From a virus (Duplodnaviria; Caudoviricetes): 64,000 nt of DNA. The notes beneath the pieces are model-generated. The model worked only from the letters and a program-made list of their open reading frames with translations, searched no databases and had not been told where the DNA came from. This document shows positions 17,580 through 18,829 of this stretch, piece after piece. Location of the stretch: the IMG/VR virus record IMGVR_UViG_2546826724_000006, positions 23,029 through 87,028 of that record; one strand, 5' to 3'. The position numbers and the translations under genes are program-made. Position 1 is the stretch's first letter. The number at the start of each line of letters is the position of its first letter.

Positions 17580-18059
17580 ATGGCTTTGATGAAACGCACC
17601 CGCGCTACCGCGCTAGACCGCGACCCCCTGGACCGCGATAAGCTCGACAACTTGATGCTGTTCCTGAAGGACCGGCTCAGCCCCGACGACTTCGCTAAGT
17701 TCACCGACCTGATTGACGATCTGCAGGACGATGCAGAGGCTGCGAACCCCTCTCGTGAGATGGCGACGGACGCCCTGCCGGCTTCGATCCGCCGCGCGGT
17801 CCGCCGCGAGATGCGGAGTGCCCGCCTCCGCCTCTCGGGCGGCTCGTCCCTCGCGCAGGACGCGGCGCGCATCAGCTCGTTCGAAGAGCGCTATCCGGGC
17901 GCCGCGAGGATTAAGGGCGACCCGATGCCGGGCGCTATGTACACGGCCCGCCGACCGGATCCGGTTCTGTCGCAGCCTGAGGCCCGCGCAGCGAGGGAAG
18001 CGAGCGCGGCTCGCATCTCTGCAATGATGGGCGGCCGCATCATCAAGGACGCTGAGTGA
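17580..18059 (+). CDS. Scaffold-like capsid morphogenesis protein (no protease domain)
   Basis: LAQDAARISSFEERYPGAARI resembles helper scaffold end AMDAAAAKSFDERFGTSRI. Confidence 0.6.
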   Translation: MALMKRTRATALDRDPLDRDKLDNLMLFLKDRLSPDDFAKFTDLIDDLQDDAEAANPSREMATDALPASIRRAVRREMRSARLRLSGGSSLAQDAARISSFEERYPGAARIKGDPMPGAMYTARRPDPVLSQPEARAAREASAARISAMMGGRIIKDAE

Positions 18060-18829
18060 TGGTCGGGCCCCGCCGGCAGGAAGCCGTCATCTCGGCTTCC
18101 GAGCCTTCGCTTCGTTCTCCGGAGCGCCAAGCCCTCGCCGAAGCCATCGCCAAGGCTGAGGAGCACAACAAGGGTCTCGCCGCGTGCCGCGCCGCGATCC
18201 AGGCCGCCGAGGGGATGGAGGCGACCGCGGAGGCCGCCCTCCGAGATGCCCAAGCCGAAGTCGAACAGGCTAAAGCAAGCCGTGCCGCTGAGATCACGGC
18301 TGCGGCTGCGGCCGGGCAGTCCGTCCCGTCGAGCGATCGTCAGCGTCTTGCCCGCCAGCGCGAAGTGGAGGCGCAGGACGAACTAGAGGCCGTGCGATCC
18401 TCGCTTGAGGCCGTGCGGGCGCCGCTAAGTGACTGGGAATACTGGGCGCAAAATTGCGCTGAGAAGGTCCGCAAGGCTGCGGCCGATGTTGCTACTGCTC
18501 AGGTCCCGGAAGCGATTGCGGTAGCGCTCAGGGCGATCAAGAACGCCGAGGTTTGCGTCCGCTCGGCCTATGCGGCGCATAGCGCGGTAACCGATGTCGC
18601 GGGCGGCCAGGATCAGGCCATGTCGGCGCGCATCAACGCTCTGCTCAACTTCGTGCCGGGCACCTGGGACTATCGCAATCCCAGCCGCGGGGACGGTCCC
18701 GAGTGGAACAGGGCTGTCGCAGCCTTGCTGACGGATCCCGACGCGCCCCTGCCGGCCGTGCGCGAGGTAGCGGACATGGTTCCCGGCGAGCCCGGTCCCG
18801 GCATCACCGGCCCGCGGCGCGTCGCCTGA
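18056..18829 (+). CDS. Ala-rich coiled-coil hypothetical protein
   Basis: 257-aa ORF coupled to previous gene. Confidence 0.65.
   Translation: MMVGPRRQEAVISASEPSLRSPERQALAEAIAKAEEHNKGLAACRAAIQAAEGMEATAEAALRDAQAEVEQAKASRAAEITAAAAAGQSVPSSDRQRLARQREVEAQDELEAVRSSLEAVRAPLSDWEYWAQNCAEKVRKAAADVATAQVPEAIAVALRAIKNAEVCVRSAYAAHSAVTDVAGGQDQAMSARINALLNFVPGTWDYRNPSRGDGPEWNRAVAALLTDPDAPLPAVREVADMVPGEPGPGITGPRRVA

Follow-up and report, generated by a model that had tools for sequence, protein, structure and literature searches.

A scaffold-like, protease-less protein encoded by a satellite-type element inside a prophage capsid gene, with a possible role in capsid size

The stretch of DNA analysed here (the window, 64,000 nucleotides, positions 23,029 to 87,028 of IMG/VR record IMGVR_UViG_2546826724_000006) covers the right-hand part of a provirus record of 87,028 bp and holds head and tail genes resembling those of the phages E217 and Pa193. 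The major capsid gene of this Methylobacterium-type prophage, the presumed helper, is split by an 18.3-kb element that carries its own large terminase subunit (TerL). We focus on a small gene directly after this TerL, which encodes a 159-residue protein with recognizable likeness to part of the helper's 486-residue DUF2213 protease-scaffold. The features of the small gene, and the helper gene with which it is compared, are as follows.

17580-18059, + strand: 159-residue protein, assigned from hhalign and hidden Markov model (HMM) comparisons as a protease-less, shortened homologue of the DUF2213 scaffold moiety
17634-17744, + strand: predicted helix-turn(RLSP)-helix, residues 19-55 (AlphaFold2, AF2)
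17760-17774, + strand: MATDA, residues 61-65, putative site for the helper prohead protease (motif enrichment)
17781-17825, + strand: predicted basic helix, residues 68-82, SIRRAVRREMRSARL (AF2 helix 68-82)
17850-17912, + strand: LAQDAARISSFEERYPGAARI, residues 91-111, second A-x-D-A site and a copy of the DUF2213-scaffold end motif
17976-18056, + strand: degenerate second copy of the end motif, residues 133-159
7547-9007, + strand: helper DUF2213 protease-scaffold, 486 residues (PF09979, E 6.9e-37; phrog_2229, E 4e-99)

The open reading frame (ORF) of the small gene begins 12 nt after the TerL ORF (16032-17567). This agrees with the first-pass annotation of the locus, which had placed the protein after the satellite TerL and had quoted a set of motifs from it and from the helper protein, all of which are present at the places given. 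The 159-residue protein contains RLSPDDFAK (residues 32-40), MATDA (61-65), LAQDA (91-95) and DAARISSFEERYPGAARI (94-111), and the helper protein contains KLSPEDREK, LATDA, LAQDA, two copies of TAMDA and the end DAAAAKSFDERFGTSRI. In the AF2 model, helices spanning residues 19-30 and 35-55 are predicted with a per-residue confidence (pLDDT) of 87-89. The arginines of the basic helix are kept in an alignment of the four closest family members, and a counterpart of this helix is also present in the helper scaffold alignment. Residues 92-116 align to positions 264-288 of an HMM built from the scaffold part of the helper family (i-E 1e-4). Residues 133-159 align with the ends ...AMDA..KSFDERFGTGRIG.. 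of two small relatives, P0003 and P0004, and, in hhalign, with the last residues of the helper protein. Searches of Pfam (E<=0.1) and PHROGs returned no match for the 159-residue protein, while residues 23-189 of the helper protein are recognized as DUF2213 (E 6.9e-37). The 159-residue ORF is also missed by an HMM of this protease domain (DUF2213, ~167 positions); the HMM matches the helper protein and proteins at five loci of the survey described below (L054, L021, L006, L033 and L080). The absence of a protease domain, another claim of the first-pass annotation, is thus borne out by Pfam, PHROGs and the protease-domain HMM.

Pairwise BLASTP of the 159-residue protein against the helper protein gave a marginal match (11/20 identities at the end motif, E 0.032), which we judged unconvincing by itself for scaffold homology. 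A word-indexed search found three relatives with 61-75% identity, in which all of the motifs are kept. The profile of these four sequences was run against 1.84 billion protein representatives and gave 14 matches at E<=1e-3, among them the window protein and ten further small proteins of 126-232 residues. The small proteins share a common plan, consisting of a conserved N-terminal segment found to be specific to the small family, an LS(P)-D/E motif and a basic helix, with the end motif present in one to three copies. P0003 and P0004 end in ...AMDA..KS(F/L)DERFGTGRIG.., which is nearly the helper's own end; the small family therefore carries the end motif twice. The small-family profile also matched the 531-residue protein P0014 (E 4.4e-6) at its LSPEAFAK region and at its end, and P0014 aligns over its full length with the DUF2213 protease-scaffold family.

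We then have two families to compare: a 14-member small family (A2) and 25 aligned helper-type DUF2213 proteins (A4). Left out of A2 were P0011 (3121 residues, matching in 11 stretches), P0013 (562 residues, repetitive) and P0014, which went into A4. Alignment of A2 with A4 by hhalign yielded a probability of 97.9% and an E-value of 5.1e-13 over 127 colinear columns, with residues 19-158 of the small protein matched to helper residues 306-485, from the LSPED region to both C-termini. An HMM of the helper-family scaffold part alone matches the 159-residue ORF with E 9.3e-8. The similarity to the helper scaffold put forward in the first-pass annotation is thus significant in profile comparison. 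Nearly all of the 25 helper-type proteins are closed by the end motif A.DA....F..R(F/Y)....R(I/L), which by analogy with other scaffolds is likely to be the coat-binding end. The traits of the scaffold moiety, namely the LS(P)-D/E helix-turn-helix region, the repeated A-x-D-A and the end motif, are all present in the 159-residue protein. Other searches with the protein were negative: tblastn against 50,697 phage records found no match, the ESM Atlas gave no usable match, and Foldseek with the AF2 model returned nothing below E 4.8. On the profile comparisons, we consider the 159-residue protein to be almost certainly homologous to the DUF2213 scaffold.

A structural anchor for this homology is provided by Pa193 gp24 (PDB 9B40 chain G, from a Pseudomonas Pbunavirus), a putative scaffold annotated as 'scaffolding protein', which the helper family matches over its whole length (9b40_G, 478 residues, E 3.6e-15, HMMER). 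The A2 profile gave chance-level rows only against PDB sequences and did not reach gp24 directly. Since the satellite protein alone does not reach gp24 by sequence search, the two are connected by way of the helper family: small-protein residues 19-42 correspond to helper residues 306-329 (hhalign), and that helper region corresponds to gp24 residues ~295-323 (HMMER). gp24 belongs to the same family as the helper scaffold, and its LSP-D/E region is kept in the 159-residue protein. It differs from the latter in having 478 residues and an N-terminal DUF2213 domain, and in being encoded by a phage. Excerpts of the Pa193 structural report describe a capsid of triangulation number T=9, with the capsid protein modelled only from residue 66, and a gp24 helix-turn-helix (residues 286-326, with the acidic turn EMSGE) that forms a pentamer under each five-fold vertex on the capsid interior (PMC11456595). 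The same excerpts state that gp24 fragments persist in mature virions and that I312, V315, L319 and L322 hold the pentamer together (PMC11456595). On the two chained alignments and the AF2 model, residues 19-55 of the small protein are the predicted counterpart of this capsid-interior helix-turn-helix, and the spacing of the hydrophobic residues F38, F41, I45 and L48 would match that of I312, V315, L319 and L322 along the same two alignments.

The A-x-D-A repeats are a further retained element. The 159-residue protein has two occurrences of [LMIVFT]A[MQTKLH]D[AS], where 0.047 are expected, and the fraction of 5000 shuffles that reach two is 0.0004. The helper scaffold has four, the capsid N-terminus one, and the other 45 window proteins examined have four in all. 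The capsid copy is LAMDA at residues 41-45 (9693-9707). The form (L/M)A(M/L)DA lies ~40-55 residues into the capsid proteins of the window and seven aligned relatives, and at an eighth locus too (L083-L090). From this distribution, we read the A-x-D-A motif as a putative cleavage site for the DUF2213 prohead protease, a probable one in the capsid protein.

The genetic setting of the small gene is that of a satellite. The features on which this depends are listed here.

9573-9980, + strand: helper major capsid gene, N-terminal part, 136 codons
28288-28971, + strand: helper major capsid gene, C-terminal part (PF09950, formerly DUF2184, E 1.7e-6)
9969-9979: left attachment site (attL), identity block TACCAGACCAT, 11 bp (read from the sequence)
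28276-28286: right attachment site (attR), identity block TACCAGACCAT, 11 bp (read from the sequence)
14237-14950: serine recombinase
15664-16035, + strand: probable small terminase (TerS), 123-residue ORF overlapping the TerL start (assigned by position)
16032-17567, + strand: satellite TerL, 511 residues (phrog_2, E 9e-21)
25858-26994 and 26996-28210: tandem tyrosine recombinases (Pfam), at the right end of the satellite

From core to core, 18,307 bp separate the two halves of the capsid gene, and the element is co-oriented with that gene. The first-pass annotation had likewise spoken of a satellite TerL, of about 18 kb to be packaged and of capsids of the family formerly called DUF2184. Comparison with an uninterrupted capsid gene from a related provirus (L083) shows that no residue is missing where the two halves meet and that the frame is continuous; therefore, site-specific excision would restore the capsid gene. 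The insert begins with an excisionase-like helix-turn-helix protein, a RuvC-like resolvase, a tail assembly chaperone, a primase/AAA protein, the serine recombinase and the probable TerS. These are followed by the 511-residue TerL, the 159-residue ORF, a 257-residue protein, a spike-like protein and a baseplate hub, and finally by a two-frame tape-measure gene, a Rha/antirepressor and the two tyrosine recombinases. None of the ORFs of the 18.3-kb element matched a capsid, portal or protease family in Pfam, PHROGs and further family searches. We therefore regard it as a satellite-type element inside a late gene of its presumed helper. The 123-residue ORF has no family match in Pfam or PHROGs, and its probable identity as TerS follows from its position; relatives of it lie upstream of TerL in 28/80 loci of the survey. 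The C-terminal ~75 residues are alike in the satellite TerL (17319-17564) and the helper TerL (3858-4067), with 37% identity and a pair E-value of 9e-9. Outside this region the two proteins have no detectable similarity. The shared C-terminus would fit docking of the satellite terminase on the helper portal. The tyrosine recombinase genes (25858-28210) occupy the lowest-G+C stretch of the window (0.54-0.58).

To place the element among its relatives, we collected 2616 homologues of the satellite TerL at E<=1e-10, the named ones being mostly from Methylobacterium and other Hyphomicrobiales. The survey covered 80 loci around TerL homologues, 70 of them with >=3 kb downstream of TerL. In L003 and L014 (E ~1e-60), in L015, L012, L036, L037, L053, L054 and L068, and weakly in L009 and L020, the small-family profile matches the ORF immediately downstream of TerL. 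Among the 70 loci, 20 have the coiled-coil gene, 9 a small-family ORF, 5 a match to the helper-scaffold part and 4 a DUF2213 protease domain; at least one of the last three is found in 12/70. These counts are lower bounds, since diverged versions escape the profiles (L004, L005, L011, L013 and L022). The recurrent gene order starts with resolvase, primase, in some cases a serine recombinase, probable TerS and TerL, and continues with the small scaffold-like gene, the coiled-coil gene, hub, an HK97-gp10-like gene and tape measure. L096, L003 and L014 are among the loci in which TerL, the small ORF and the coiled-coil ORF follow one another. In L096, the closest relative for which there is DNA, the end of TerL is followed by a 152-residue ORF, the stop codon of which overlaps the start of the coiled-coil gene. 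The element in L003 measures ~14 kb and has a P4-type integrase at its boundary. The helper capsid halves found no match in the 80 related loci, and the sole portal match is a weak one (20% identity) in L006, upstream of TerL. Locus scans with the small family gave no confirmed relatives in genome_contigs or viral_contigs and one 1.2-kb locus in metagenome_contigs, and a scan of viral_contigs with the single TerL protein found none.

Several of the related loci reveal how the small proteins may have arisen. In L054, TerL is followed by a protein of ~320 residues whose DUF2213 protease domain is 53% identical to that of the helper and is fused to a short scaffold tail resembling the stand-alone proteins of L053 and L037. 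The protease domain is still attached in the related elements L054, L006, L021 and L033. In a second lineage, with the order TerL, tape measure, ~210-residue protein and coiled coil, the 210-residue protein of L004 matches the scaffold part of the 428-residue DUF2213 protein of L006 (38% identity over 186 residues, E 2e-27; L004:13815-14447, L005:14912-15523 and L011:14677-15315 versus L006:14454-15740). This ~210-residue protein corresponds to the protease-less scaffold part of another DUF2213 lineage, ending in ...LSNAW(K/R). Taken together, the L054 fusion and the L004/L006 match indicate that the small proteins are truncated descendants of a protease-scaffold gene, and that the protease was lost more than once; on the alignments, the loss appears to have happened in parallel in the two lineages. 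The first-pass annotation had described the protein as a mimic of the helper scaffold. The scaffold relationship holds, in the form of a protease-less relative of the helper-type scaffold. The convergent mimicry suggested by the comparison with the staphylococcal satellite protein CpmB does not, as the intermediates in L054, L006, L021 and L033 point to truncation. On this evidence, the likeness is one of common descent and not of CpmB-style convergence.

Relative to the DUF2213 protease-scaffold, the 159-residue protein has lost the protease domain and ~100 residues of linker. It has kept the vertex-type helix-turn-helix, one good and one degenerate end motif, and two A-x-D-A sites of the type that lies ahead of the mature N-terminus in the capsid protein. 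The scaffold part measures ~100-170 residues in the satellites versus ~290 in helper-type proteins, and the tether from the helix-turn-helix to the end motif is ~35 residues long in the 159-residue protein versus ~125 in the helper. Because the vertex helix-turn-helix and the end motif are kept and the tether is shortened, we propose that the protein is an alternative internal scaffold in helper procapsids. In our assessment, it rather likely acts inside helper procapsids as a scaffold-like protein, with capsid binding and cleavage suggested by the retained motifs. That it redirects capsid size, as the first-pass annotation proposed, is a more tentative idea, to which we give less than even credence. 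Exclusion of the larger helper genome, also proposed there, is similarly tentative. The complete picture, a cut-down internal scaffold of a phage satellite that co-assembles with the helper capsid and favours a smaller shell, is the reading we prefer, and we hold it to be almost as likely as its negation.

The preferred reading would work in the following way. On induction the satellite would excise, restoring the capsid gene, and the helper would supply capsid protein, portal and protease-scaffold. The 159-residue protein would co-assemble into procapsids by means of the contacts it has kept, either in competition with the long helper scaffold or in its place, and would then be cleaved by the helper protease and leave the shell. 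A tether of ~35 instead of ~125 residues would favour a more tightly curved, smaller shell, suited to the 18.3-kb genome, which the satellite's own terminase would package. The helper genome is <=68.7 kb long, given the 87,028-bp record with an integrase at its start, and at least ~60 kb, given the position of the lysis genes, so that the satellite is ~27-30% of its length. Capsid-size redirection is plausible because of this ratio: if the helper shell is T=9 like that of Pa193, ~30% of its DNA content would fit into a T=4 shell, as (4/9)^1.5 = 0.30. With its shortened scaffold the satellite probably takes over helper capsid assembly, and possibly builds smaller heads. A wider generalization is a rather doubtful one at present: an undescribed but widespread alphaproteobacterial satellite family that parasitises E217/Pa193-like myoviruses and downsizes a presumed T=9 capsid to ~T=4 via a shortened scaffold tether. 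The gene set of such a family would comprise TerS, TerL, the truncated DUF2213 scaffold, the coiled-coil partner, baseplate hub and tape measure.

The gene that adjoins the small gene bears on these proposals.

18056-18829, + strand: 257-residue protein, predicted three-helix coiled coil (AF2, mean pLDDT 87.8)

As the first-pass annotation had stated, a coiled-coil gene follows the small gene. The GTG start of the 257-residue ORF overlaps the stop of the 159-residue ORF, an overlap also seen in L003 and L096, and its AF2 model has three long helices (residues 22-86, 94-147 and 150-182). By iterated profile, relatives of the 257-residue protein are found in 24/80 TerL loci, always just downstream of the position of TerL and the small gene. 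Neither Pfam, PHROGs nor HMMER searches gave a family match, including searches with all 25 aligned members against Psu (PF07455). Foldseek against PDB and BFVD and a wide VIA-align search with the model returned generic coiled coils and helical hairpins only. Language-model features placed the protein near clusters with the P4 Psu family (score 0.95, 5/30 matches). This lead towards Psu is not backed by HMMER, and the PDB sequence hits include no chain of Psu. Psu is also absent from the top fold matches listed for the protein.

The satellite further contains paralogues of helper tail genes, in a gene order unlike that of the helper.

11190-11666 (satellite) and 37508-37993 (helper): tail assembly chaperone, 58% identity
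19051-19740 (satellite) and 43503-44201 (helper): spike, 64% identity
19744-20595 (satellite) and 42643-43506 (helper): baseplate hub, 45% identity
20605-22844 (satellite) and 38134-40560 (helper): tape measure, 45-50% identity

Since hub and tape-measure genes are also found in related elements, the element family may also remodel or personalise the tail. The satellite tape-measure gene consists of two overlapping ORFs (20605-21375 and 21339-22844) with a single frameshift at ~21293-21340 in a G+C-rich run. In relatives such as L003 the tape-measure ORF is undivided (835 residues). The frameshift may be a sequencing error; otherwise it points to decay.

A number of observations weigh against the reading of the 159-residue protein as a size-redirecting scaffold matched to this helper. 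Residues 91-111 are closer to other DUF2213 lineages (16/20 identities to P0014 versus 11/20 to the helper), and it is the end-motif copy most like that of this helper which is degenerate in the window protein and in P0002. The AF2 model of the protein is mostly of low confidence outside residues 19-82. The frameshifted tape-measure gene implies that this copy of the satellite may be decaying. Some relatives keep the whole protease together with the short scaffold, and the gene may therefore be an inherited assembly factor with no role in size. In tests of co-residence, DUF2213 was found in 3/10 satellite-bearing genomes (G003, G004 and G009) and PF09950 in 2/5; the C-terminal part of the helper capsid protein, used as a single query, matched 0/5 satellite-bearing genomes. 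In G003 and G004, which hold both the satellite and a DUF2213/PF09950 prophage, the resident scaffold ends in ...NAWKPAGAR versus ...FPHM.R.G in the satellite, which again speaks against a matched pair. The two ends are similar in G009 (...KTFPNSGRLK in the resident scaffold, ...ERFPNANRLR in the satellite protein). With the ends different in G003 and G004 and alike in G009, there is no general helper-matching rule.

Four other explanations were considered. The protein could enter or bind procapsids and leave their size unchanged. As an interference or commitment factor, it would block the helper protease-scaffold by taking up the scaffold's sites on the capsid protein, or mark shells for the satellite terminase, and satellite multimers would be packaged in full-size heads. 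The binding elements it retains are identical to those behind the reading we prefer, and complete proteases with short scaffolds in several related elements suggest a general assembly role. Excerpts of a report on Gram-negative phage-inducible chromosomal islands (PICIs) likewise describe packaging as phage-length concatemers (PMC10111431). This explanation leaves the consistent shortening of the scaffold (~100-170 versus ~290 residues) in need of another cause, and a length ratio of ~27-30% would be typical of size-redirecting systems, so we regard it as unlikely. In a second alternative, it is the conserved coiled-coil partner that could equally determine size, as a cage inside or outside the shell like P4 Sid or the TcaP protein of PLE, with the 159-residue protein as an adaptor or accessory, as CpmA is beside CpmB. 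The coiled-coil gene is more widely kept than the small gene (20/70 versus 9-12/70 loci), its family has conserved N- and C-terminal motifs, the model is confident and elongated with helices of ~65 residues, and the language model places it near Psu clusters as given above (0.95, 5/30). Against this stand the fold searches, which yield generic helical hairpins only, and the window protein and its 25 aligned members, which have no HMMER match to Psu or another phage family. The 257-residue protein also has no link to capsid contacts, while the 159-residue protein has one based on homology. We consider a size-setting role of the coiled-coil protein distinctly unlikely.

The motifs of the 159-residue protein might also serve as a capsid-targeting signal for its basic middle peptide (residues ~65-92), which would be released by the protease and stay with the DNA or be ejected into the next host. 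The arginine-rich helix is indeed flanked by two A-x-D-A sites, and gp24 fragments stay in mature Pa193 virions, as excerpts of that report state (PMC11456595). There is no cargo domain, however; the whole protein aligns with scaffold sequence, and the basic helix has its counterpart in the helper scaffold alignment, which makes a packaged peptide very unlikely. Finally, the gene could have lost its function and be a leftover of a protease-scaffold gene in a prophage fragment that is decaying, given the rearranged paralogues of helper tail genes and the frameshifted tape measure in the element. Against this stand the many genomes, from several genera, that keep an intact ORF at this position, the retention of all motifs in relatives at 61-75% identity, the stop/start overlap with the next gene here, in L003 and in L096, and the conservation of an N-terminal segment specific to the small family. 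We thus regard a remnant as highly improbable.

By analogy, the closest functional parallel of the 159-residue protein is CpmB of SaPI1, an internal scaffold that redirects capsid size for a staphylococcal satellite (PMC5644958). CpmB (with CpmA) is likewise a small, helical protein from a satellite without a capsid gene, with a second small gene adjoining, and both proteins are proposed to compete with the helper scaffold. CpmB reportedly carries the capsid-binding C-terminal end of the helper's scaffolding protein. The 159-residue protein similarly shares the scaffold end motif of the helper family, through which it would bind the capsid. Unlike CpmB, it is to be regarded as genuinely homologous to a protease-scaffold fusion, whose protease domain persists in some relatives, and it retains the internal vertex helix-turn-helix and protease-site motifs. 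The helpers differ as well: that of SaPI1 is a T=7 siphovirus, and the one described here is an E217/Pa193-like, presumably T=9, myovirus. To our knowledge, few routes by which satellites reshape capsids have been described, namely CpmB, Sid, TcaP, Ccm and Rcm.

Among these, Sid of P4 and TcaP of PLE, together with Psu of P4, are helical proteins encoded by satellites and remodel helper capsids, according to excerpts of the respective reports (PMC7552001, PMC10945586). They act as external scaffold or decoration, whereas the 159-residue protein derives from an internal scaffold. The position of the element resembles that of enterobacterial helper-embedded PICIs (HE-PICIs), which excerpts of one report place in a helper late gene, such as 11capE in the capsid gene of a lambdoid prophage (PMC10111431). 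The window element shares with them the embedding in a capsid gene with frame-restoring att cores, and its excision is predicted accordingly. Unlike HE-PICIs, it has its own TerL, two tandem tyrosine recombinases and one serine recombinase, and tail genes. The terms Alphaproteobacteria, Methylobacterium and scaffolds each have 0 occurrences in that report (PMC10111431). Excerpts of a 2025 preprint on the EPIP satellites of Mycolicibacterium describe a small terminase, scaffold and tape measure, and heads smaller than those of the helper (PMC12822802). EPIP satellites have an actinobacterial host and no reported embedding in a helper gene. A literature search found no report of the 159-residue family or of such satellites or embedding in Alphaproteobacteria, and by title none of the DUF2213 papers concerned satellites.

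If the preferred reading is right, the 159-residue protein represents a capsid-piracy route distinct by origin, a truncated homologue of a protease-scaffold fusion. Intermediates with the protease attached survive in related elements, and therefore the path from phage gene to piracy tool would be readable. The length of the scaffold tether would then be a ruler of capsid size. The gp24 structure (9B40) locates the retained helix-turn-helix and makes the relation of tether length to triangulation number testable. The element would also extend helper-embedded and tail-gene-carrying satellites to the Alphaproteobacteria.

The remaining head genes of the helper lie upstream of the split capsid gene.

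2826-4073: helper TerL (family search)
3947-5707: helper portal (family search)
5764-7512, + strand: helper MuF-like gene (family search)
9035-9547: helper cement protein (family search)

Directly after the capsid gene, three successive ORFs (175, 143 and 142 residues; 28943-30363) share a common core, V.V.CRMP.G..L ... W..W...NKDSDL. They have no Pfam match and may be paralogous head decoration or accessory proteins. In the 582-residue MuF-like protein (5764-7512), the Phage_Mu_F match is limited to residues 150-257. The C-terminal part starts with CFPGDTQV and ends in ...AKNC, and it looks intein-like. It is overlapped by a 355-residue ORF on the opposite strand (6559-7626, - strand), in a stretch of lower G+C (0.60).

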